A stretch of DNA of 16,232 nucleotides from NCBI GenBank assembly GCA_051294375.1, contig JBJCIZ010000068.1:1-16232 (forward strand). Reading direction: 5' to 3'. The position numbers and the translations under genes were made by a program. A model generated the notes under the pieces. That model did not search any database. It worked only from the letters and a program-made list of their open reading frames with translations, and was not told where the DNA came from. Source of the DNA: Paraspadella gotoi. Taxonomy: Eukaryota; Animalia; Chaetognatha. Below are positions 1 through 16,232 of the stretch, in pieces; position 1 is the first letter of the stretch; each line of letters begins with the position of its first letter.

Positions 1-1317
1 TGGCATTAACTTCGCCGAGAAAATTGAGGCCTCGCCTCCAATAAGGGGCTCCTGTGATGGCCGAAGAAATTGTATCGATTGTATCTTCCCAACCTCGCCG
101 AGTACATAAGTCGGCGGCATCGACCCATATTAGTGGCACCAGGATAGGTGATGACTGGAAAAATTCGAAAAGGTAAGTCCGTTGAAGATCATCAGGCGTT
201 CGCGACTGGATGCTTTTAGAATTTAGCGAGGTCGCTCATTAAAAGCATTATTTTTTGTAGCAATGTGGAAAACGCGAGCATCACAATAAAAAGAAAGAAG
301 GTCAATTTCAGTTTTATCTAGACCTGGTAGAGGAGTGTGGTATGCGACGCTAAAGTCGTTTGATTTTGAAATCAAATTCCACAATTCATCCAGACCAGTT
401 TTATCTCTAATGATGAGACCGTGTGACCGGCCGTCTCGTAAGAACGAGGGAAGATTGTGCAAAGGAATGTTAAACGGGTCTCCACAAGAGGAGAAAAACG
501 AATCAGACGCAGCCGGAGGATATTTTGGATGAGGTAGGCCGCGCATGTCCATAAGTCGTGTCGCGAGCCTAGAATGAAGATCGCGATCTTGGACACACTG
601 ACCTGGAAACAACCTGTCGTCTCCTGCTGCAATCGTTTGGCAGGCAGAATACATATCTTCCACCTCGGTTTCGCCTCGCAGGAATGACTCAGTCAAGATA
701 TCTGTGCGAGCTTTACAGACAATTTCGTAGTACGCCTCCTGGCAAAGGTATTTCCAACACCTTCGCAGCAGGTGCGAACAAATCGACCGACGTAGTACGG
801 AGAAAATTTATTTTTGTAATTTGGGATTTCATAAAGAGAGGAGAAAAAGGAAGAAAAACGAAGTTTAGCAAAAATAGTCTCTGGATATTCATAAGAGTTT
901 TATGATAAAGCTGATAATTATTTTGATTTCTTGGCGAGGAAAGTTTCTCGCAGCCTCTTTTAAAGTGTCGGTTCGCCCCGCGCCACTGATGAAATAATCG
1001 AGAAGAATGACGACTGGGCAAAAAAAAATAGTTGAGCTGAACAGCCCATGAAGTCGACCCAGCCCAAAAAACGTTTTCATTTAGAATTGCGCCGATAAAG
1101 TCATTTAAGTGATGATCAGTGAAGATAGTCATCATCGCGCGTGCAATGAAATACAGTCGTTGACGGTTGTCTCGTGTTTGTTTAGGAAAGAGTTTTAAGA
1201 TACCGACAAACTCTTCCACTGTCTTTTCTGGCGTTGAAGACTGAATGCGCTTTAAGTATTTTTAGAATTTTACATCGTTTAAGATTAATCAAGAGCTTTA
1301 CAGGTGAAGATTCAGCA
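1..1317 (-). CDS. Probable ORF3 C-terminal half (frameshift-fragmented): helical domain plus degenerate second exonuclease-fold domain
   Basis: Overlapping minus-strand ORFs (1182..1400, 713..1219, 889..1080, 223..696, and an open frame running off position 1) join into a protein-like sequence with single indels, several at homopolymers. LIIRDKTGLDELWNLISKSNDFSVAYHTP...EIDLLSFYCDARVFHI and VDAADLC...IDTISSAITGAP follow the spacing of a DEDDy fold but lack the ExoI acids. It could be a pseudogenised copy. Confidence 0.5.
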
Positions 1318-2938
1318 TTAATTGCTGGTCGCGCACAAGCGCGTTTGTAAATTAGTTTTCTTTTTAGTTTTAGATTTGTTAGTTTTGTTTGAAGTATCAA
1401 TTTCTATCACAACTGTCTCCATGACATCAGTGTTCAAATCTTCAGTCATAGTGGAAGTTGTTGAAACTGTTGCATTTGTGACAGTAGTTGTTATTGTAGG
1501 TATTGTTTGTTTAGATATGTTGGCTGTTTCTGTTGCCAATGAAGAAACGGACACGGATAGGCGTTGAGAACGACTAATAGGATTTGTTTTACAATAAACT
1601 ATTTCAAAGTTTTCGTTTGGTCGTCGTTGTTTCAGTCTAGCAATTGTGATTTCACGTNNNNNNNNNNCTAGCAATTGTGATTTCACGTCGTTTGCGTCTT
1701 ACCATTTCTTCTTTCTCTGCTTGGGCAATGCGTGCATTAAAATAACTGGCGCATTCTTCGAGCGCACCAGCAGAGTTAGGTTTTAAGCTGCCAGATTTAC
1801 CTTTCGCATAAGTTTCTACAATTTCGTGAAGGGGAGTACCGAAAAAATGGGAATCGTCGCTGATNNNNNNNNNNAACAAGTCAGGCGATAGCCCGAGAAT
1901 CTCCGAGATGTCAGCAACGGCGTCCCTTGCTGCTTTGGCATCAAGGACAGCATAACATAACTTACGCTTAGACAGGAGAGAGTGTTTTTCGCAATAATCG
2001 GACCTATGGTCACGATGAAAGTTTCTCTTGTCAAGGAAACGATCCTTGAAAGCAAAACGAAAGAAAAAACCAAGAGAAATCTCAATGAAATCAACCCATT
2101 TGCCAGTTTCGATGTACTGACGAAGCGCGGAAGGGCTATCTCCAAGGGATTGACAGAACCCATAGAGAAAGCCAATTTCGATTGCTTTTATTTTATTTTT
2201 CTCCCGCGGCAAGATTTGGAGAATTTCGCAAATCTCCTCAATATCGATTTTAACATTCTTACCAGTAAAGATGGCTTTATTGTGACAAAGAATTTCGCAT
2301 AAAAACTTTGGAGGACCCTCACGCAAACAGGACTCGCCAATTTTCGAATGTAACTGATAGAGGACGTGAATTTCTTCTTGTTCCACCATCGCGGATAGTT
2401 GCAGAGTTGCACCCTTACCTTCGCTGTCGAAGCCTATAAGAACAGGCTTGTTGCTTTTTACAAGCCATGTGAGGAGCCTTAACCCCACCTGTTCGTCGTC
2501 GGCATGATTTCGTACATGAGTGATTTTCTCTGGCATGAGAGTCTCTAAGGTGTTTTCCTTTTTCAATTCTCGAAATTCAAAATTTTGATAAGCGTCCTCG
2601 ATTTTTGAATTGGGCGCTCCCGCTTGTTGCGGAATACGGTCGAGGTCGACAAGAAGCTTTGCCATCTTTAAATCTGATGGAATCTCAATCTCGCGAGTTT
2701 CTTTTGAAGGCAAGACCTCCGTGCTATACGAGCATATAAACTGTCGTACGGGTTTAGGTGACTGATCCGGTTCAGGAGGGCGTTGTGGCACCGAACAGGG
2801 CGACTTTGGAGAGAGTTCAACAGACTCCGGCCTCGCGGTAGGCCAGTTTACCGGCTCGTAGACAGGTGTGACAGCGTTATACACTGTCGACATTGCGATA
2901 GCTTGAAGGCGCTGCCTAATATTAGTTTTCTTTCCCAT
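1318..2938 (-). CDS. ORF3 N-terminal half: Pro-rich leader, DEDDy (DnaQ-fold, WRN/RNase D/EXD-like) 3'-5' exonuclease, helical stretch, Thr-rich linker
   Basis: ExoI IGFDSEG (D 2426-2428, E 2420-2422) followed by ATLQLS. ExoII IFTGKNVKID (D 2243-2245), then SL...LDK...RSDY. ExoIII LSKRKLCYAVLDA (Y 1952-1954, D 1940-1942). ATG 2938 is in an AAAATGG context. ORFs 1652..2953 and 1318..1686 fuse once the 21-bp duplication flanking the 1658-1667 gap is collapsed. Confidence 0.85.
1637..1688. other. Assembly gap with duplicated 21-bp overlap
   Basis: CTAGCAATTGTGATTTCACGT is present on both sides of the 10 Ns (1637-1657 and 1668-1688). Other 10-N gaps are at 1865-1874, 3842-3851, 8194-8203 and 8452-8461. 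Confidence 0.85.
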
Positions 2939-3405
2939 TTTAGTGGGCGTCAAGTAAAAGAATAGCTTTTAAACGAACTAACTAAAAAGAGTAAAAACAA
3001 GAATAAAACCAAATCCAAATTCAATAGCTCGGTTTCAAAATAAAGAACTAGTACACAAAGCCTAACACTAAAAGACTTTGGCAGATAGGCCAATAACAAA
3101 TAAAATTCTAGCGCGCATTTTTAGTTTAAGAGATCTCTTATATATATATATATTTTTTTGTTTAGGCAGAATCAAACTACAGGCATTCACAGACATTCAC
3201 ACAAGCATAATTATTATAAAAAATTGTTTATTTGATGGCCAATTCGTTATTATCCATAAGCTTAAGCGGTAGTGAACCAGCTAAATTGAAACATTTTGAG
3301 CTTGGAATCTAGCTTTCATGAGAGCATAAAAACAAGTTGTCACGTCTGACAAACTACATGTAAGTATAAAAGATGAAATATCTACATAAAGTAAAAACAT
3401 TCTAC

Positions 3406-5800
3406 TTATTTTTTCGGTGTAGAGGCCAACAATGGACCTTGCGAAGAAGACGGACTATCAGTTTGTAAATTTTCTACTCTAATATTTCTAATTGATTCTA
3501 AAGGAGAAATATGTTGGTTATTTGATCTAAGTCTTGCACTTCGTCTCACAACCATTTCTTCGGGCTCTTTATTTTTATTTACAGATGGTTTACTTTTAGT
3601 TCTCATCCTATCAACCAATGGGTGAGGGGGAGGAGGTCTATGAAATTTAATAGAGGTTCGTTTAGCTAATTTTTCAGGTGTAGTTACATTATTATCAATC
3701 AAGTCGCCCTCTGAAAATGGCGTAAAAACTTCATCAAAAGATTTAGAGCGATTTCTAACATTACTCTCTGATGCACCGAAAGAATTAATACTCTCTTGAG
3801 AGTCTAAAACAATAGTCTCAGAAAAGTTTCTGAGTTTTGTANNNNNNNNNNGTATGTTTTGAGCATTTAGCTCCGCTGATATCGAATGAGGGGCAGAAGG
3901 CCCTCTTATTAGGTCTTGATTGGTTTCTGGATCAGGTAAATAAGCCTGCAACCTTGCGGTAGCATTATTTAGGTCGCGAAGTAGGCTATCCATATTTGAG
4001 GCCTGGGCTTGAGGCCTTACAATAAGCTGTGCTGCAGAAGGCAGCAATTCCCGATCATTATTGCTTGCATTGATTACAGCATACAAACTAACATTGGGAG
4101 TGTCTTTTTTGATCAGAGGTAGTTTCATTAATTTGTTGTAATTAGCATTTACAATTTTTAATTGTTCACGATTTTTACGAATTAATTTACCATGTTTGTC
4201 TTCACATATATAGGAAGTGCCTGGGCCTCCTGTAGGGCTACGGCATCTTTCCTTAACTGTGATGGGGCCGCGCCAACGCGGTTCTAATTTTCCTCGTCTA
4301 TCGTCTGGGACCCGCTCATAAACGTGGTCACCCACATCAAGAGGAGCACCTTTGGCTTTCTTATTGTAATGCTCTTCGTCTTTTGCTCTTTTTGCATTTT
4401 CCTTCGATTGGGCCTCCTCTTTTGTTTCCAAGACCTTTTGGCGCATACTCTGAACATAGTCATTTAAGGACTTATGTTTTATTTTAATTTCTCCACCTAA
4501 TGGAGGATGAGGCACTGGGGGAGGCCTCCCAAAGAAAAGCAAAAATGGAGTCATATCGTTTTTTGCAATGGGTGTAGTGTTGTACACCCATTCAACATAT
4601 GGCAAGTGGTCTACCCATGATTTACCATATTGTTGAAGACGCTTGGTTAAATCTTTTATTAGTGTTCGGTTTTGTCTCTCTACATTGCCCTGAGATTGGG
4701 GTCTGTATGCGACACTAGTTCGCTTTTTGGTCCCTAGGACCTTACAAGTCGCATTCATGATTTCAGAGACAAACTCACCACCATTGTCAGACGTTAGACG
4801 TTTAGGGGGGCCCGCAAAGCAGACTAAATTCTCAAAGGCTTTAGCGATGCCAATGGAGTTTTTGTTTCTAAGCTTATAAAGCTTAATATACCCAGAAAAT
4901 ACATCTTTGAAAACTAAGACGTATTTAAAGTTTCCGGGAGCAACTGGAAGTTGCAAAAGATCACAAACAACATGGTCGAACACGTTTTCAGCAATAATAG
5001 GCTGTAAGAGAGTTTTCACTTTCGGTTGCGGCTCTCGCATCTGATCACAGATAGAGCAATTCTTTGTAAATTGAGCAACATCTCGCCCAATAGTGGGCCA
5101 AATGGCATAGCGTTTAATTTTGTCTTGCATTTTGTTGTTACTTGGATGCCCAGCTAACATTGAGCCATGGCTATCCTTCAAGACATTTGCGACAAGGCTA
5201 TCCGGTAGCACTGCTTGCAACACCGGAGAATGGATACCTTTGTTAAAACCCTTACGATACAAGGCACCCTTTAGGATAACAAATCGATTAAAGTTCTTTA
5301 AATACCACTTCTCAGGAAATGACCTAGGCGGCCTCTTCCTGATTTTGACAAACTCCATGACTTCTGCCATGGTGGAATCATCTTCCTGTGCGCTTTTAAG
5401 CGCCAAGGCTTCACATTCAGCATTCAATTGTACAACCCTAGAATCATCTAGGTCATCGATACCCAATAGGGCCCAATTACCATTCTCTGCATATAATGCA
5501 TATTCATCCTCTTCAGAGGGCTCGTCATCCTCCTCGCCTCGTCTGCTCATTGCATCCGCGTCAGAATGAATTTTGCCCTGTTTGTATATGAGCTCAAAAT
5601 CATACTGGTCAAGCTCAATGGCCCACCTGGTACGCCTACCAGTGGCATCTTTCTTTGGATCGACTTTCTTCCAAGAAAGCAAGGGTCTGTGATCAGTTAT
5701 AGCAATGAACGGCGCATGCCTAAGATAATGGGCATTTGCGCGGATTGCCGAAAGCAAGGCAAAAAACTCTCTATCGTATGTAGACCATTTTTGTTGGGCT
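3406..5800 (-). CDS. pol: Pol part 2: C-terminal RNase H, integrase and long low-complexity tail
   Basis: After a 1-nt indel near 5800 the frame reads AQQKWSTYDREFFALLSAI...ITDHRPL...HSDADAMSR (RNase H). Integrase shows HHCC (HGSMLAGH...CSIC), the DDE core (VVCDLL, LTSDNGGEF, GNVERQNRTL) and GPY/F-like KLEPRWRGPITV. No chromodomain is recognised. Confidence 0.95.
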
Positions 5801-7907
5801 TAGAAAGCTTTTTAGATCCATAGGAAATGACTTTTTCTTTCCCCTCAATTTTCTGGGTTAGGACATAACCTATAGCGAGTAGAGAGGCATCACTCTTAAT
5901 GGTAAAGGTTTTTGTAAAATCAGGATAATGCATAATTGCATCCGAAATAAGTGTGCGTTTGAGCTCATCAAATGCTTTCTGATGCTCATCTTTCCAACAC
6001 CATTTTGCACCTTCTACAGTAAGATCAGTTAGTGGCTGAGCAACTTTACTGTAATTCTTGACATATTGACGGTAGTACCCCGTCAAACCAAGGAAGGTTT
6101 TAAGGCGTTTTGCATTTTCGGGCGGGGTCCATGATCGGATCTTTTCAACATTCCGAGGATCGAGAGCTATACCATCTCGCGAGAGCTTATGGCCTAAGCA
6201 CACCACGGTATCATGAACAAAATTACATTTTGAAGGGTTGAGCTTCAAACCAGCCCCCTCTAAGGCTGTGAGCACCTGATCAAGGTGCGTGAGGTGGTCT
6301 TCCATATTGCTATCAGCAATTAGGATGTCATCCATGTAACTGATAACATGTTGTGGGGGTAAACCCCGTAAGACGAGCTGCATGAGGGAACTAAGACAAC
6401 TTGGAGAATTTTTAGCTCCCATTGGAGCAACCTGATATTCCAGGTGCATTGACTCCGTAGAGAATGCAAAAAACTTCCTGTCATCAGGATGTATAGGTAT
6501 TTGCCAAAACCCTTTAGTCAGGTCCATAGAGCTGAAAAACCTTGGATTATCAAGACGCTGTATAGAATCTTCAATCCTAGGTAAAGGGTAGACAACTTTA
6601 TTGCATCTTTCATTGATACGCCTGAAATCGGTAAGGAAGCGCCATCCACCTGATTTCATTTTGACTAATAAAATCGGAGCCGAATAAGGGCTCGTGGAAT
6701 GGCTGATCAAGCCATCAGCAATCATTTCAAATGCTTGCTTGTCTATTACATCACGCATCTCAGGTCGAGTACGGTACGGAGGTACGGCAATAGGAGGAGC
6801 ATCTCTGTCCTTAAGATTAGCTCTATATTGTATAAGATTTGTGCGGCCATAGTCTCTGTTGTGTTTGGAAAAAGCTTTCTCATGCTTCTTTTCCAAAAGT
6901 TCGACAAGCCTTTCCTTATAAGGAAGAGCTTCTTTAGAAAGACCCGAATAATCTATAGACAACCTCTTAGCGCCTGGTGGAATGTCATTTTCCACCTTAG
7001 GTGTTGGTTGCGGTTGGTTATGGTCTGACTGAGATGTGTCTGGAGAAGGATCCATCACAATCTCATCTGGTTCCTCCTCTTGGGGAATATCATCAGCCGA
7101 CTCATAAGCCGAATCACTGCTGTTATAGGAACAGAGCATATCTGTTTTGACAGAATAATTATCGAATGTATCATCATCAGAAAATTCAGCATACCCGAGA
7201 ATGTGTCCGGCTGGAAGCTTCATGCTCACCGGGCTACAATTAATTATCTCGGTCATGAATTTACCATCGTCAATGTGGGCACATGCCCTACATGCCCAGA
7301 CATGGCCTCCCTGATTAAGAAAGGGGTCTGTAATAATAGTTTTGGTTGCACGAGGTAAGTGGTCACTATCAAGTTTAAGTTCGGCATCAAAGTGCATTTT
7401 TGAGAGTCCCGGGATGACAATGTCCTCCGGAACTTGGTAAAAGCACCCTGAAATGTAATGAGACTCCTCAATGAGTGGAGCGGAGTGATTACCCAAGAAT
7501 TTTAGTCGGCCTTCCGAAGGGCAAAGGGAAGCCGAATATTTCGAGAAAAAGTCCCAACCAAGAATGAAGGGCTGGACTAGGCCCTTAACTACCCTACAAT
7601 TGATTCGAAGATAGGTATTATCTATTCTAAATTTTACATTAACTATACCAATAGTAAGGACACGAGTGCCATTAATGGCCTTGCCCTTGGCAGAGAAGGG
7701 ACGAAAACTGCGATCTTTGATCCCAGGGTTGTCACGCAAGAATTCTTCGCTTATACAACTCTTAGTGCAACCCGTGTCGCCAAGTGTGGCGATGTTCCTC
7801 CCTTCTACTCTAATCATAAATTCAGCTTTCCATTTTGGCTTTGGGTCTGGGGGTAGATTATTTTCGACCTCTGCTCGACCCGTAGCAGGATCGGGTATTA
7901 GTTTTCC
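5800..7907 (-). CDS. pol: Pol part 1: aspartic protease, reverse transcriptase, N-terminal RNase H
   Basis: Protease LGDTGC (DTG 7770-7778). RT motifs SPYSAPILLV, WRFLTDFRRIN, YPLPRIED, MDLTKGFWQI, PMGAKNSP and YMDD (6327-6338). RNase H start IKSDASLLAIGYVLTQ. Corresponds to ORF 5697..7817 extended to the frameshift site. Confidence 0.96.
7865..7907 (-). promoter_or_regulatory. Candidate -1 programmed ribosomal frameshift signal (gag-pol)
   Basis: G GAA AAC (7907-7901) sits immediately before the gag TAA. The -1 frame is open into pol (GKLIPDPATGRAEVENNLPPDPKPKWKAEFMIRVEG). A hairpin CGATCCTGCT/AGCAG(A)GGTCG starts 7 nt downstream. Confidence 0.7.
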
Positions 7908-9070
7908 GAAGAATTTTCGGGGGTTGAGTCACGGCCATGGTCCCTTAAGGTGGACTTAGCCTTTCTCCGCTGCTTAACGAACTTTCTGATAGCTTCCTCC
8001 TCACTAGCATTAGCGCCACTTTCTTCATCTGATGTATTAACACCTCGATATCTGTCACGGTTACGATCGCGGTCACGCTCGCGACCATCTCGGTCACGTC
8101 TATCGCGACGGAAGTCACTACGGTTGCCACGGCCCTCGCGGCGATCACCATAGCGATCCTCCTGACGATCGGAACGTCGATCTTCATAACGACNNNNNNN
8201 NNNTTCTCGGTCACGATTGTATCGTTCACGACTGTCATAGCTACTACTTCTCCCTCGATAAGAATTTCGGGAGTATGTCTGACGATTACGGTCACGCCCA
8301 CGATCATCACGTCCCGAATCAGAGGAAAAAGAGGGGCTGCGATTAGGCCCTCGATTTCTATCATGGGTCTCAGTCCTTCTCTTGACCTCTTTAATATCAG
8401 ACATCATATTTTCTAGTTTGGTAGAAAGGCCAGCAATGGCACGTTCTACTTNNNNNNNNNNATCGTCAGCCATTGCGGCACCAGTGAAGGTGACCGATTT
8501 TTCAGACTTAGACTTTGAGGAATCATCCTCCTGAGTCATTTGGACTCGCATAGCAATTTGCTTAGCTTTATTAATATTTCGCTCATCTTCTCCACAACCC
8601 AAGTCAATTGCGTCGCGGTAAGGCTTAGGCAAAGCCATCCTGAATCTGAAGAACAACTCTCGCGCTTTGGGCACATCAGTCAAGTCTTTCTCGTGTTTCG
8701 AGACTTTTCTGATGATGCGAGCAGCCAAGTGATTAAATGATTCTTTACCGTCCCATTCGACAGTTATTTTTTTAGCTTGCCATCGATAAGTCTCTTGTGG
8801 GTCATTAAGAAGCTTAATCATTTCTCGCTTGGTTGCGGCATAATTTGCTCCAAGAGCAAGTTTAAAAACTTCCCTAGATGGCTCATCCAATTTTAAAGGG
8901 AGCCAGTGGAGGCATAACTCCTGTGTCCGAGCATCACTAGATGGGTTAGTGGCTAAAATCACTGCACGTTCAAAGAGAGTTATCCACTCTTCGAAGTCGT
9001 CAGTCTCAGAGTCAAATTTATCAATAGGAATAGAAGAAGCAGCCTTCTCGCGACTAGCCTCGCGAGACAT
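7898..9070 (-). CDS. gag: Gag (capsid-like N-terminus, Arg/Asp/Ser-rich C-terminus, no CCHC knuckle seen)
   Basis: First ATG at 9070 (MSREASREK). Retrotransposon Gag-like segment IDKFDSETDDFEEWITLFE...WLPLKLDEPSREVF. It lies directly upstream of protease. Two N gaps fall inside it (8194-8203, 8452-8461). Confidence 0.8.
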   Translation of the reverse strand: MSREASREKAASSIPIDKFDSETDDFEEWITLFERAVILATNPSSDARTQELCLHWLPLKLDEPSREVFKLALGANYAATKREMIKLLNDPQETYRWQAKKITVEWDGKESFNHLAARIIRKVSKHEKDLTDVPKARELFFRFRMALPKPYRDAIDLGCGEDERNINKAKQIAMRVQMTQEDDSSKSKSEKSVTFTGAAMADDXXXXVERAIAGLSTKLENMMSDIKEVKRRTETHDRNRGPNRSPSFSSDSGRDDRGRDRNRQTYSRNSYRGRSSSYDSRERYNRDREXXXXRYEDRRSDRQEDRYGDRREGRGNRSDFRRDRRDRDGRERDRDRNRDRYRGVNTSDEESGANASEEEAIRKFVKQRRKAKSTLRDHGRDSTPENSSEN

Positions 9071-9975
9071 TGTGACCGATTCGAAAGTCACGTACGAAAA
9101 TTTGCAAGACGAAGTTCACGATTGATGATAAAAGTTAAGAATTGTAGAAATTACGAAGTTGAATAAATGTTTATTAAAACGCTGATAAAAAGGTTTATAT
9201 TTGTTAAAAACAGTCCAACAGGTCAGCGGTGCAGAATACCAAACTAAAACATCTTGCATCGGAAGAGAAGTCCAAAAAAAAAGGAACACCAATCACTCTG
9301 AGGATCATCCAGGTGGCTAAAAATCCCGTCGCTCTGGTCGCAGGAGCCGTTCAAGCCGACCCCTTGTCTCGTCACTTGGGAAGTTGGTGAAATCGCACAC
9401 AAGGACTACACCCAGAGTCTTTGGAGAGAAATGTCTTGGGGGTACCCGCGGATTTTTAGCGGTATAGGGCTAAGCACCGTGCCGAATGTAGAGGCGGACT
9501 TACAATCAGCCGATGGAGTGTGCCACAATGAGGGAGGTAGCCAAGCAAGCCTCCCTCCGACTTCTAAAGCAGGGACTTCAGTTGAATCTGTAGCCAGGTC
9601 GTCAGAGTGTCACATGACAAAGCTAATTGGGCTCCACGAACGTTTTGCCGTCTTTTACAACGCGAATGCGAGGAACTGCGCAAGGTCGCTTCGCAAAACC
9701 CGACAATGTCAAACGTAGACACAACTTCTCCACAAGCAAGATTCGCGAAGTCTCAGGAAGAATTATTTTGAAAGAACAAACACAACTTCACAGCAGGGCT
9801 GAACCCAAAAAGGTGCTGTCATAACAGCCAACTGCTGACGAAAAAAAAGGTCAATCGCCAATCCACAGTACGTCAGGATCAACCCGATAGACCAATGGGC
9901 GATGACGCAAAACTCCAGAGAAAAGAGCGCAGATTGTCAACCGACAGGGTTCTCTACATAAGAATGCAGATAGGA

Positions 9976-9985
9976 CGATGCACCA
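9976..9985 (-). promoter_or_regulatory. Primer-binding site, tRNA-Gly(GCC) type
   Basis: Minus strand reads ...CCAACA-G-TGGTGCATCG. This is complementary to the 3' end CGATGCA-CCA of invertebrate-type tRNA-Gly(GCC); the tRNA sequence is recalled, not searched. Confidence 0.7.
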
Positions 9986-9986
9986 C

Positions 9987-10368
9987 TGTTGGGGGTGGTT
10001 TTATGAAGAATCACGGTGGACGATGACGATGGGCGCTGACCTCTGCGGCGGCGCGATAAGGAACTCCCAACTGATTGGCCACGCGGGAGGAGACCAGCAA
10101 ACGGGCGGCACGGCTTGACAGTCCACGGCTACCTTAATATGTGATCTGCGAGATCGAGAACATAATACGAAAGGAGCGACACCATCGATTAGATTATGGT
10201 ATTCATGCACTTGCCCCATATATTAATAATGGCCACGATACTTAGACTGGAAAACAATGCAAATGAAATCCAAATGTTAATCAAATAATATTCAAAAAGG
10301 TATCACAAAATAATGATTATAATCATGAGTCTTTTAATGTTTCGTTGATCGAGAATTACGCTCCAACA
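9987..10368 (-). repeat. 5' LTR (382 bp)
   Basis: Perfect 6-bp inverted termini TGTTGG (9987-9992) and CCAACA (10363-10368), fitting the TG...CA rule. The inner end is 1 nt from a TGG-starting PBS. The outer end coincides exactly with the abrupt start of satellite sequence. Confidence 0.8.
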
Positions 10369-11640
10369 CAGAGTGGCGCCCACTGACACGGAGTCTCTAA
10401 GGATGTGTGACGGTTTCAGGTGGGCGCCACTCCGTGTCACAAACAGTTATTTTGTGGCTTAATCCCCATATTTAACCCCCGCACTAAAAAGCCCACCTTC
10501 CCATATTTTTTTTTAGATAACAAAAAGATGAATTTTCCATCTTTGTGACACAGAGTGGGCGCCCACTTGACACGGAGTTCTCTAAGGGGATGTGTGACGG
10601 TCAGTGGGCGCCACTCCCGGTGTCACAAACAGTATTTTTGTGCTTAATCCCATATTTTAACCCCGCACTAAAAAGCCCCAGCCTTCCCCCATATTTTTTT
10701 TAGATACAAAAAAGATGAAATTTCATCTTTGTGACACAGAGTGGCGGCCCACTTGACACGGGTTTCTCTTAAGGGATGTGTGACGCGTCAGTGGGCGCAC
10801 TCCGTGTCACAAACAGTTATTTCTTTGTGTTAATCCCCATATTTAACCCCCGCACTAAAAAGTGCCCCAGCCTTCCCATTATTTTTTTTAGATACAAAAA
10901 AGCATGGAATTTTCATCTTTGTGACACAGAGTGGCGCCCACTGACACGGAGTTTCCTCTAAAGGATGTGTGACGGTCAGTGGGCGCCACTCCGTGTCACA
11001 ACACAGTATTTTTGTGCTTAATCCCATATTTAACCCCCGCCACTAAAAGCCCCAGCCTCCCCATATTTTTCTTTTTATAGATACAAAAAAGATGAATTTT
11101 CATCTTTGTGACAACAGAGGTTTGGCGCCCACTGACAGGAGTTTCCAAGGGATGTGTGACGGTCAGTGGCGCGCCACTCCGTGTCACAAACAGTATTTTT
11201 GATGCTTAAATCCCCATATTTAACCCCGCCACTAAAAAAGCCCGCCTTCCCCATATTTTTTTAAGATACAAAAAGATGAATGTTTCATCTTTGTGACACC
11301 AGAGTGGCGCCCACTGACACGGAGTTCTTAAGGATGTGTGACGGTCAGTGGGGCGCGCACTTCCGTGTCACAACAGGTATTTTGTGCTTAATCCCCATAT
11401 TAACCCCCGCACTAAAATAAAGCCCCCAGCCTTTCCCCATATTTTTAGATTTACAAAAAAGATGGGGAATTTTCATCTTTGTGCACAGAGTGGCGCCCAC
11501 TGACACGGAGTTTCGTCTAAGGGATGGTTGTTACTTCACGGTACAAAAGTGGTCGCCTAGCCTCCTGTCAACAAAACAGTATTTTTGTGCTTAGATCGCC
11601 CCATTATTTAAACCCCCGCTCGCACCTTGAAAATTATTTA
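10369..11640. repeat. Tandem satellite A, ~185-bp monomer, ~7 copies, with internal 28-bp inverted repeat
   Basis: The motif CTTTGTGACACAGAGTGGCGCCCACTGAC recurs near 10541, 10727, 10917, 11104, 11289 and 11477 (spacing 185-190). Differences between copies are mostly small indels. Confidence 0.95.
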
Positions 11641-14030
11641 ACCGCTCTCTTTCCAGACCTTCTTTACTTTCTCCTTTATAGTATTATTATTTAGATTCGA
11701 CAATAATTAATGCGGTATGTAGTTTTTAAATACTTTCATCTTTCGTTTTATCACAGAGTTGGTTCGACCATTCGGAGACTGAACAAAAGAGACGGGTTCT
11801 TGCCCGTCTTTATATATGTGAAGTATTTTTGTGTGCTTTGTTACATTTGTTCGCAACAAAATCCGGCAATTTGTTTTGTTTGGTTTTTTCTGGCCATCGT
11901 CTCCCTCCGTGTCCACTTTTCTCACAATAAGTTTTTTTGTAGTGACTCCTCTATATATACGAACAACGATTATTTAAACCCGTTCTCTGGGTGCTACTTT
12001 GACACCAGCTTATAATAAGTCTCACCCTGCGTGATCTGAGAGTGACGAGATTCCCCATAGTATGGTTTATAAATCTTAGCAATATACTCACACTCACAAA
12101 AGAGAAAAGGAGAATGAGAGAGATTTTCAGTCTTTAATGCGATTGAACAACAAAGAGTTGAGAGCGCCCAAGAGCTGAGAGAATCTCTACGTAGTTTGTT
12201 CTTCTTGAGTGAAAATGTGTCGGTAATTTAAAAAACGAGAGCTAATTAAGTAGGTGACCGTCGCTCCACTCCGTGTCACAAACAGTACCCTTATTTATAT
12301 GTGCTCTTAACAACCTCGATTGATGTTATTATCGCCACAGTATTTAACCCCAGCTCTTCTAAACCTCAGATATGTCTTATTTCTTCTTCTCCCTGCCTCT
12401 CGACCCAATATTTAATTATTCTAATACTCGAGAAAGATAATTTTCATCTTTGTGACACTCGCTAGTTAGATGGAACATTTTCTTCTCAATCTCGTTACAC
12501 GGAGTTCTTCATAAGTTGGAGTGTGTTTTTTTGTACTTGTCAGTGGTGCGCCACTCTCGTGTCACAAGTCTCTTATGTTTAAATTTATGTTTATCTCTGT
12601 TGGAAGAACTTACGTACTGCGCGTATGTTATTTTTCGATTTTATCCCCTCCGCACTATTTAACATTAGAAAAAGTGCCCGCAAGCTTCCCATATTTTTTT
12701 TAGATACAAAAGATGAATTTCATGCTTTTGTGGACACAGAGTGGCGGCCAATGACACGGAGTTTTCTTCTAAGGGATGTGTGCGTCATGGGCCAACATCG
12801 CTGTGTGCTCGCGCGATGGTATTTTTTTGTGATGCTCTTATTATTACATGGCAACCATACTCAGTTTAACGCCTTTGCGGCGTGTTCTCTAAATAGATAT
12901 TATAATGACTTCCTATTTGTCATAATGTGGTGACACCCATAAATTATTATTTCTGTCTATATATCATCTGTTATTATATATAAAGAGGTTATGATTCAAT
13001 ATTTCTTCAATTCTATCTAGATGAGACAACCAAGTGCGTTTTCTTGGTGTGGTCTTAAACGTTCCACTTGTATCACTAGGTTTAGATTGCTACGTAAGAG
13101 GGAGAATAAGGCGTGGATAATAATTGTAAGAGAAACGAGAGGGGTACAGAGTGAAGAGAGAGAGCACTAAAATAAATGAGAGACATACTTTGTGTGCTTA
13201 CATAGCTTTATTGTTAATATGAGCTCATTAAAAAAATGCCACTCATTCTTTATATATTATAACCTGTCCCGCCACTATAAATCAGACAAACCGACTTTTA
13301 CTCATACCTCTCCTCTGTTATGGAGTAGTACCATAATATGCAGAGAGATATTAAGAATTTTTTTCATTTGTCACTCTTAGTTTCTTGGGCGGAACCCATC
13401 TTCGGTTTTCCCGGTGAGTTTCTCGATAAGAGTGTTATTTGTCTTGTGCGTGTTTCTAGCATGTCGAGAACACAGCGTGGGCGCGCGTTTTTCTTTGCTT
13501 TTTTAACCGCTCTCGTTGTCACATAATCTCATGTTGGTGAATTATTATTGGGTCGTTGCTCTCCGCTCTCGTATATTTAATTGTATATAACCCTTTATCA
13601 ACTTCATTTTAACTAATAGCAACGCTCGGTCTCTTTATCGGTCCGTATATTTTTTATTCATGTATTATTACAATATGAAGGAAAAATTTCAGATTTGTGC
13701 CGGTGTGTGTTATAACCAGGTGTAGTTTGTATCGTCCTTTTTACATTGGCCGCACTAGACACAAGTGGTTTCTTCGTTCTAATATAGTTTTAATAGTAGT
13801 GTTTACTCATGGTTCTAGTGGACAGAGGCGACACACATAGTCGTTCTCGTTCACAGAATACATGTAATCGTTTTTTTATGTGCTTCTTTATATAGAGTCA
13901 GCCTGCAGAGTAATATGCTATAAACCCATAAAACTCTAAACGGCGAAACAGATAAAAGAGACCCGACCGAAAGCGGCAGATTCATCACACATTATAATTG
14001 TGATAGTATGTAGAAATAATTTGTATAAAT
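11641..14030. repeat. Highly degraded or noisy continuation of satellite A
   Basis: Recognisable remnants include CACTCCGTGTCACAAACAGT (~12267), TTTTCATCTTTGTGACAC (~12441), GTCAGTGGTGCGCCACTC (~12539) and GACACAGAGTGGCGGCCAATGACACGGAG (~12733), with fainter traces to ~13900. Confidence 0.65.
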
Positions 14031-16232
14031 AGTTTTGATAAAAAGATATTTAATAACTGTCCTCACCCAATTTTAACAAACCTCGATTGATGTTATTTTG
14101 CAGAAGTATTTAAACGTTTTTATTTTCTTTTATTTCTTTAAAAATATCGTTTTCCGGTTGTTTTAGAAATTTTTTATCTCTTTTTTACATTGAAAAAAGC
14201 GTTTTTCTTTGTTTTTAAAGTTGTTATCTTCTTTGGAAATATGCGTCTGCCGGTGTATTTAACGTTTTTATTTACTTTTAACTTTAGAAAAGTCGTTATC
14301 GGTGTTTTTTAACTCTTTTTTACATTGGAAAAAACGTTTGCGTTTATTTTTTAAAGTTTTTTATTTCTTTTCTACATTGGGAAAAAATCGTTTTCTGTTA
14401 TTTTTAAAGTTTTCATATTCTTTTTACAGAGAAAAAAGTCGTTTTCTGGTTGTATTTAACGTTTTTATCTATTGAGAGTGAGAGAAAGCTACATTAAAAT
14501 TAAAAGAGAAAAGAGGAGAGAGAAAGGAGGACATAAAAATAAAAGAGAGGAAATTGTTGTTGTTTTGATAAAAAGATATTTAATAAACTCTCCTCACCCA
14601 ATTTTTAAACAACCTCCGCCCCGATGATGTTCATTTGCAGAAGTATGTAACGTTTTTATTTCTTTTTTCTTTTAAAAATATCGTTTTCCGGGTGTTTTAG
14701 AAATTTTTTTATCTCTTTTACATTGGAAAGCGTTTTTTCTTTGTTTGTTAAAGTTGTTATCTCTTTGGAATATCGTTTGCCGGTGTATTTAACGTTTTTA
14801 TTACTTTTTACTTAGAAAGGTTCGTTTATCGGTGTTTTTTAACTCTTTTTACATTGGAAAAAAACGTCTGCCGCTTTTTTTTTTAAGTTTTTTATTTCTT
14901 TTTACATTGTAAAAATCGTTTTCGTTATTTTTTTAAAGTTTTTATATCTTTTTTACAGAGAAAAAGTCGTTTTCTGGGTGTATTTAACGCTTTTATATCT
15001 ATGAGAGTGAGAGAAAGCTACATAAATTAAAGAGAAAAGATGAGAGAGAAGGAGACAAAAAATAAAAGGAGGGAAATTTGTTTGTTTTGATTAAACGTTA
15101 TTTAAAAGAATATTTAAAACTGTCCTTATCAATTTTAACAACCTCGATGATGTTTATTTGCAGAAGTATTTAACGTTTTTATTCTTTTTTTCTTTGAAAA
15201 TATCGTTTTCCGGTGTTAGAAATTTTTTATCTCTTTTTACATTGGAAAAAGCGTTGTCTCTGTTTTTAAAGTTGTTATTCTCTTTGGAAATATGTCTGCC
15301 GGTGTATTTTAACGTTTTTTATCCTTTTTACTTTAGAAAAGTCGTTTATCGGTGTTTTTAACTCTTTTTACATTGGAAAAATCGTTTGCCGGTTTTTTAA
15401 AAGTTTTTATTTCTTTTTTACAATGGAAAAAATCGTTTTCTGTTATTTTTAAAATTTCATATCTTTTTACAAGAGAAAAAGTCGTTTTTCTGCTGTATTT
15501 ACGTTTTTATCTATTGAGAGTGAGAGAAAGCGCTACATTAAAATAAAGAAGAAAGAGGAGAGAGAAGGAGACATAAAAAATAAAGAGAGAAATTTGGTTT
15601 GTGTTTTGATTAAAAAATATTTTATAAACTGTCCTCACCCAATTTTAACCACCTCGATTATGTTATTTGCAGAAGTATTTAACGTTTTTATTTCTTTTTT
15701 CTTTTAAAAAGTATCGTTTTTCCGGGTTTTAGAAATTTTTTATTCTCTTTTTACATTGAAAAAGCGTTTTTCTTTGTTTTTAAAGTTGCTTATCTCTTTT
15801 GGAAATATCGTCTTGCCGGGTGTATTTAACGTTTTTTATTACTTTTACCTTTAGAAAAGTCGTTTTCGGTGTTTTTTAAACTCTTTTTTTTACATTTGGA
15901 AAAAAAAACGTTTGCCGTTTTTTTTTTAAGTTTTTATTTTCTTTTTACATTGGAAAAAAATCGTTTCTCTGTTATTTTTAAAGTTTTCAATCTTTTACCA
16001 GAGAAAAGTCGTTTTTCTGTGTATTTAACCGTTTTTTATCTATTGAGGTTGAAGAAACTACAATAAAATTAAAGAGAAAGAGAGAGAGAAGGAGACATAA
16101 AATAAAAAGAGAAGGAATTTGTTTGTTTTGATTTAAAACGTATTTAAAAGGATATGTAATAACTGTCCTTACCCAATTTTACAACCTCATTGATGTTATT
16201 TGCAGAAGTATTTAACGTTTTTATTTCTTTTT
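14031..16232. repeat. Tandem satellite B, ~530-bp AT-rich monomer (>4 copies) made of ~40-50-bp subrepeats plus a purine-rich block
   Basis: ACCTCGATTGATGTTATTTGCAGAAGTATTTAACG variants occur near 14080, 14612, 15141, 15651 and 16185. The GAGAGTGAGAGAAAG block recurs near 14474, 15003, 15516 and 16045. Confidence 0.93.

Follow-up and report, generated by a model that had tools for sequence, protein, structure and literature searches.

A chaetognath Ty3/Gypsy retrotransposon whose third ORF joins a DEDDy exonuclease to a second, predicted inactive DEDD fold

In retroviruses the third gene position is that of the envelope gene. A different occupant is described from bdelloid rotifers, where the elements Juno1/2 and Vesta2/5 carry DEDDy ORF3s that are shared with Athena/Terminon (Rodriguez, Kenefick and Arkhipova 2017, PMC5408684), a precedent repeated in the available text of PMC6431247 and PMC5718144. 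As far as the available parts of the 2017 paper go, the rotifer ORF3s are stated to have a spliced message, 3′-end processing and a mut-7-like silencing role are already proposed for them, and the discussion, citing EXD1 and Maelstrom, treats dead DEDD domains as RNA binders; the elements concerned are still covered by small RNAs and show no clear gain in copy number (sections 3.5 and 4). Also pertinent is Nibbler, in which, in the available text of PMC11347159, a HEAT-like domain precedes the DEDDy domain and is proposed to recruit the protein to AGO-bound RNA. The role of DEDDy ORF3 cargo has been an issue since 2017.

The case considered here is from Paraspadella gotoi and lies on the minus strand of a 16,232-nt stretch of DNA, the whole of which was analysed and is termed the window. 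An earlier note, made from the sequence alone, treated cargo of this kind as unknown from any standard LTR lineage; this was wrong, since Juno and Vesta carry DEDDy ORF3s and the cargo is, from the available text of PMC5408684, already a known kind. The likeness to Juno and Vesta, in the available part of their description, is of a Gypsy-like element with gag and pol followed by a non-env, RNase D-like DEDDy ORF3 with intact catalytic residues. By the same partial description there are several differences. The rotifer motif is DEED and that of the window DEDD (D at ExoII). Unlike the window ORF3, those of Juno and Vesta are not described as having a second dead DEDD or a helical domain, in what is a text-based comparison with papers whose figures might show longer ORF3s. 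The CCHC knuckle, described for all rotifer families but Vesta1b, is missing from the window Gag, and Juno and Vesta have a dUTPase between protease and reverse transcriptase, of which the window has no clear counterpart, just a weak dUTPase-like hint. The element is set apart by their description and is not filed under Juno/Vesta. New here are the active-plus-dead architecture and the distinct pol lineage; a literature search, with most subscription papers and Repbase outside its scope, yielded no tandem active-plus-dead exonuclease ORF3 and no such cargo outside rotifers. DEDDy ORF3 cargo is thereby extended beyond rotifer elements to an apparently separate Gypsy lineage, and the pairing of an active with a dead nuclease within a single protein of roughly 1,000 residues adds a further architecture.

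The element is a complete Ty3/Gypsy LTR retrotransposon with LTR, gag, pol and a third ORF (Table 1), and its primer-binding site is presumably tRNA-Gly-like. The gag-like ORF, for which a Pfam search gave no match, has 46% identity to the leading ORF in a relative, L003 (E 2e-63), whose Gag is likewise without a CCHC knuckle. Right before the gag stop is G GAA AAC (window 7898-7910, minus strand), pol being in the -1 frame, and in L003 the identical word occurs at the corresponding position (about 1485-1495); on sequence, this is probably a frameshift site. The Pfam matches are gag-asp_proteas (E 2e-4), RVT_1 (3e-31) and RT_RNaseH_2 (7e-20) in the first pol frame and RT_RNaseH (4e-11), Integrase_H2C2 (1e-13) and rve (5e-12) in the second, the domain order PR-RT-RH-IN being that of Ty3/Gypsy. 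Since relatives (1677-1817 aa) have a single long ORF, the change of frame within pol, over which contigs differ from the window by one gap letter, is probably an error of the window. The pol stop is at 3408-3406. Throughout the clade the integrase tail is of low complexity and unconserved, and amounts to 250-450 residues (window 3406-4100, minus strand; also P0076, P0077, P0080 and L002). Between protease and reverse transcriptase is a conserved linker of 100 residues (window 7140-7469, minus strand; L002 899-1228; L003 2086-2415). One of the three linkers matches Herpes_ORF11, which is dUTPase-related, at E 0.0066, a PDB search with the linker gave no match, and a dUTPase was found in none of 13 pol members; the linker is perhaps a degenerate dUTPase fold.

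Table 1. Features of the element and its flank in the window
Feature	Coordinates	Strand	Detail	Basis
3′ LTR marker	1..7	-	LTR start outside window, about 130 letters beyond position 7	
ORF3, second DEDD fold without catalytic residues	20..500	-	two pieces	profile of 5 homologs
ORF3, all-helical domain	502..1255	-	four colinear pieces in different frames	profile of 6 homologs
ORF3, long helix and Thr/Ser-rich linker	1318..1876	-	two N gaps	tblastn of homologs to about 1670
ORF3, N-terminal part	1877..2938	-	DEDDy domain about 2530-1877; D171, E173, D232, Y329, D333	
AT-rich spacer	2939..3405	-	30% GC; pyrimidine tract and AG at about 3010-2982	
pol, second frame	3406..5799	-	RNase H remainder, integrase (H2C2, DDE), low-complexity tail	Pfam
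pol, first frame	5697..7928	-	protease, linker, reverse transcriptase, RNase H start	Pfam
gag-like ORF	7898..9070	-	390 aa	ORF and relative L003
Primer-binding site	9968..9985	-	begins TGG one base behind LTR	sequence
5′ LTR	9987..10368	-	382 bp, TG...CA ends, 6-bp terminal inverted repeat	sequence
Host flank	10366..11526	.	6.2 copies of 187-bp unit with inverted repeats	sequence

About 30 relatives of the pol, at 43-76% identity, are all unnamed, and named matches begin only at 39% or below. A reverse transcriptase tree (57 rows, a quick method, matches of fewer than 260 aligned residues left out) places the window in a clade of 24 on a long stem with an SH-aLRT of 100, and by these comparisons the element looks like a separate Gypsy pol lineage. 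Among the loci seeded with pol, L001 is distant, and L004 and L005 match weakly and over a short length; the L002 sequence stops 99 nt past its pol stop, and that of L003 breaks off within the integrase. An unnamed, diverse pol clade and an unnamed, diverse ORF3 family fit one lineage, the pairing itself being seen in the window element only.

Contigs and depth were compared in four (X1, X2, X8 and X9) of nine public runs from one organism and three studies; six of the nine, X2 among them, are flagged as possible sources of the window. X1, a run of another study without that flag, has one contig of 6,130 nt that consists of an LTR piece, 130 further letters and window 7-5969, and so takes in ORF3, the spacer, integrase and RNase H, while X2 has a single contig over 986-5056. 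The join of pol and ORF3 (2950-3400) is present with both genes on one contig in these two of the four runs; in X9 a pair of overlapping contigs extends across it, and X8, broken at an AT microsatellite, leaves it uncovered. At the other end, a joint of 10368 to 7 is found in all four runs (short sides of 72, 19, 48 and 48 letters), with at least 31 letters on both sides in three of them. Just the start of this second LTR is covered, in the same orientation as the first in each of the four. Because the X1 contig spans LTR to integrase and the second LTR is there in every run, ORF3 lies inside the element. A missing 3′ LTR and a chimeric join in 2950-3400 had been named in the earlier note as fatal to its proposal, and neither applies, the LTR being just left of the window; its statement that the ORF follows the integrase stop on the same strand with no LTR between was correct, the gap being 467 nt and the one LTR copy inside the window lying elsewhere. 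That an assembly chimera brought pol and ORF3 together would be suggested by the five N gaps and the error-rich stretches of the window; with a single X1 contig from LTR piece to RNase H and a level depth across ORF3 and integrase (depth being no copy number), that explanation is largely refuted and has almost no probability left. The frame breaks in 7-1636, where the window differs by 17 gap letters from the X1 and X8 contigs, are, given those letters, probably assembly errors of the window. The exonuclease part has no variant letters among the four runs.

Some features of the contigs point to other copies. An X1 contig skips 5962-8581 (depth 15.5, its shorter side being only 23 letters), and within that interval depth falls from 27.8 to 11.5; this may be a copy with an internal deletion, which would retain integrase and ORF3 and be without protease and reverse transcriptase. 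There are loose ends and higher depth at 9565-9600 and 9880-10320, which suggests that parts of leader and LTR are common to other elements, and both borders of the 5′ LTR have raised depth and many contig ends. As X1 has a different flank at LTR end 9987, other insertions or solo LTRs exist.

ORF3 opens with an ATG at 2938 and remains open to the gap at 1658-1667. The motifs on which the earlier note relied are all present: FDSEG (D171 at nt 2428, E173 at nt 2422), KNVKID (D232 at nt 2245) and YAVLDA (Y329 at nt 1954, D333 at nt 1942), together with ATLQLS and SL..LDK..SD. A loose ExoI..ExoII..ExoIII pattern occurs by chance in 20 of 100,000 shuffles, and an HMM made from 48 homologs alone gives the ORF 283 bits, where none of 1,000 shuffles exceeds 4.6. 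The suggested check with PF01612 came out negative, the Pfam search leaving the window ORF unmatched at E 0.1 and matching two of the 48 homologs, below cut-off. Pfam being silent, the domain is assigned to the exonucleases from its homologs, profile and fold. A word-index search with the ORF passed none of 1,899 candidates, a matter of sensitivity since a full HMMER search found 48 homolog clusters at 25-40% identity; in an Atlas search 24 of 30 matches were WRN-like exonuclease, at 0.95. The homologs are diverse (median pairwise identity 27% over 916 pairs). Among those with a residue at the respective catalytic column, D is kept in 43/45, E in 45/45, D in 40/45, Y in 29/32 and D in 29/30, with E at the ExoII column in 4/45.

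A PDB search with the single window sequence gave no matches, and with the family profile the best match is WRN exonuclease (E 0.0037). A model from the window sequence alone was discarded (pLDDT 41; best Z of its fold search 4.6). The fold model utilized is that of homolog P0095 (1,128 aa; 31-row alignment), which is about 27% identical to the window and has a mean pLDDT of 71, with values of mostly 80-95 where it is folded. Its N-terminal domain, as modelled, is closest to WRN (Z 19.4, rmsd 2.1, 183 residues), then to Nibbler EXO (Z 17.2 and 16.2), with RNase D at Z 15.7; Foldseek agrees on WRN as top structural match. The group named in the earlier note, WRN/RNase D/EXD/Mut-7, is thus backed by homologs, family profile and the fold of the homolog model. 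From its sequence the N-terminal domain is a DEDDy enzyme with its predicted catalytic residues intact by selection, and we are highly confident of the identity and position of ORF3. Though WRN (PDB 2e6l, 2fbt; PF01612) is the best match by both structure and profile, identity to it is about 21-22%, and ORF3 is without the helicase and in a mobile context. In a viral fold library giant-virus 3′-5′ exonucleases come first (E 3e-6; moumouvirus, pithovirus, cedratvirus), and a giant-virus donor of the active domain is possible. A scan for exonuclease loci found nothing in 61 metagenome and 2 viral contig stretches, and a fusion search confined to candidates of 2,175-5,000 aa gave 0 of 5,008, which is weak evidence.

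The proposal of the earlier note that the nuclease was captured and is maintained by the element is borne out in part, in that it lies within the LTRs and its catalytic residues are long conserved across the 48 homologs. The opposing explanation is that ORF3 is a recently captured, functionless passenger host gene, or a host gene beside the element. Linkage to pol for the window element alone, and for none of the 48 homologs, would accord with this, as would a GC3 in the exonuclease part of 0.455 against 0.36-0.40 in gag and pol. However, ORF3 is between two LTRs with no intron seen in its coding part, the 48 clusters at 25-40% identity have the spread of a mobile family and not of host orthologs, and the ten homologs looked up, with no named WRN/EXD protein among them, are all unnamed environmental ENA sequences, so that a passenger or neighboring host gene is quite improbable.

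What the earlier note had described at 1900..2938 is a real ORF, but the end at 1900 does not stand, as homology runs on through several frames to about nt 20; about one third of ORF3 had been covered, the protein being about three times longer. Profiles of the helical domain (E 1e-13, 2e-7, 1e-6 and 8e-9) and of the second DEDD domain (E 5e-4 and 3e-7) together match five colinear window pieces from about 1255 to 20 in changing frames, with many gap letters between window and contigs in 502..1255. ORF3 fills the space from spacer to 3′ LTR, and its protein is estimated at near 1,000 residues. Of the 48 homologs, five are longer than 1,000 aa (1099-1242 aa), and many of the shorter ones look like fragments from short contigs. 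In all five the exonuclease is followed by a long helix (364-410 in the P0095 model) and a disordered linker, after which come an all-helical domain, some 250 residues long, and a last domain of some 170. In the model of P0095 that last domain (residues 905-1077) resembles the exonuclease of the apicoplast polymerase, of family A (Z 13-14.4), and Rrp6 (Z 12.9). It is present in all five, and in all five the D-x-E of ExoI and the Y-x3-D of ExoIII are missing, one retaining a single Asp; the four acidic catalytic residues are also absent from the matching C-terminal piece of the window. The second domain is therefore predicted, from the model, to be catalytically dead. As comparison of C- and N-terminal domain profiles was not significant (E 0.055), the second DEDD fold rests on the model. 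An Atlas search with frame 226-807 gave no usable match. We take the helical domain to resemble the N-terminal domain of Nibbler/EXD3, a likeness listed by no search, the structure lists being filled by nuclease domains. Nibbler/MUT-7/EXD3 (PDB 7jw6, 7jw2), the second-best match of the N-terminal domain, has, in the available text of PMC11347159, the same order of helical domain then DEDD fold as the C-terminal half of ORF3; the difference is that the domain behind the helical part of ORF3 is dead and that no MUT7-C was seen.

A pyrimidine tract with AG 43 nt before the ORF3 ATG is a candidate splice acceptor, and on that account a spliced ORF3 message is likely. Neither a signal peptide nor a transmembrane anchor was found by hydropathy in the first 356 aa of the window ORF3 and in six homologs, the highest 19-residue value being 0.93 in the former and 1.2-1.8, at differing, non-terminal places, in the latter. 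With globular nuclease folds in the homolog model, the absence of env features asserted earlier holds.

The reading that we put first, at a probability of about 0.4, is by analogy that ORF3 is a counter-silencing nuclease, one directed at host small RNAs, which it would trim. A spliced subgenomic RNA would yield ORF3 as a soluble protein, its helical domain and dead nuclease would dock on Argonaute- or PIWI-bound small RNAs or their precursors, and the tethered active domain would chew small-RNA 3′ ends, with weakened silencing of the element as the outcome. The dead fold is most simply a binding module because it is kept over such divergence, and a target outside particles is favoured since ORF3 is separate from Gag-Pol with no obvious route into particles. 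The lack of an anchor, the likely binding by the dead fold and the Nibbler-like order favour trimming of small RNAs over roles in replication or RNA handling. This is weakened in that WRN, the best structural match, is a DNA exonuclease, and in that mature piRNAs are usually 2′-O-methylated and resist such enzymes. It is further weakened because rotifer elements with such cargo, in the available text of PMC5408684, do not clearly escape small RNAs. In a more specific form, an unnamed Gypsy lineage would have fused a disabled Nibbler/EXD3-like guide-finding module to a WRN-like exonuclease that destroys Argonaute/PIWI-bound guides; this form is unlikely, and if true would mean that a retrotransposon encodes an enzyme, built from host small-RNA parts, that suppresses piRNA/siRNA defence.

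WRN as top structural match, family-A polymerase proofreading domains as matches of both folds, and a reverse transcriptase that has no proofreading would equally suit a helper in replication, which would trim 3′ ends of the element's cDNA, mismatched primer ends, the tRNA primer or the end of the genomic RNA, the dead domain holding the substrate. Yet ORF3 is outside Gag-Pol with only a hypothetical packaging route, replication in most Gypsy elements does without such an ORF3, and the 250-residue helical domain is poorly explained. Such a role has already been proposed for rotifer ORF3s in the available text of PMC5408684 and PMC6431247, and here is doubtful, if the most serious rival to small-RNA trimming.

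Egalitarian-RNA complexes and EXD1 are also among the structural matches of the N-terminal domain (Z 13-15.5), and dead DEDD domains act as RNA binders in the available text of PMC5408684, which could point to RNA handling without silencing. The dead half would then bind element RNA for transport or protection, like Egalitarian or EXD1, and the active domain would clear competing or aberrant RNA. EXD1 and Egalitarian do have a dead DEDD fold, probably for binding as in ORF3, where it is fused behind an active copy. However, the matches concern the active N-terminal domain, and the fold, common to the whole family, shows no function; handling of this kind is unlikely. The unbroken active domain of ORF3, with its 48 natural variants, is assayable on its own. 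If ORF3 attacks small RNAs, this would show whether retrotransposons encode enzymes against piRNA defence.

The element is inserted at an ACAGAG site, and ACAGAG recurs across the 187-bp units of the host flank. These units are arranged in tandem, contain a 27-bp inverted repeat apiece and are MITE- or satellite-like, with remnants at 12250-12790, and the insertion point is the foot of one inverted repeat. Further along, 14040-16232 is a higher-order satellite, rich in AT, whose repeats of about 520-535 bp consist of subunits of 40-52 bp.
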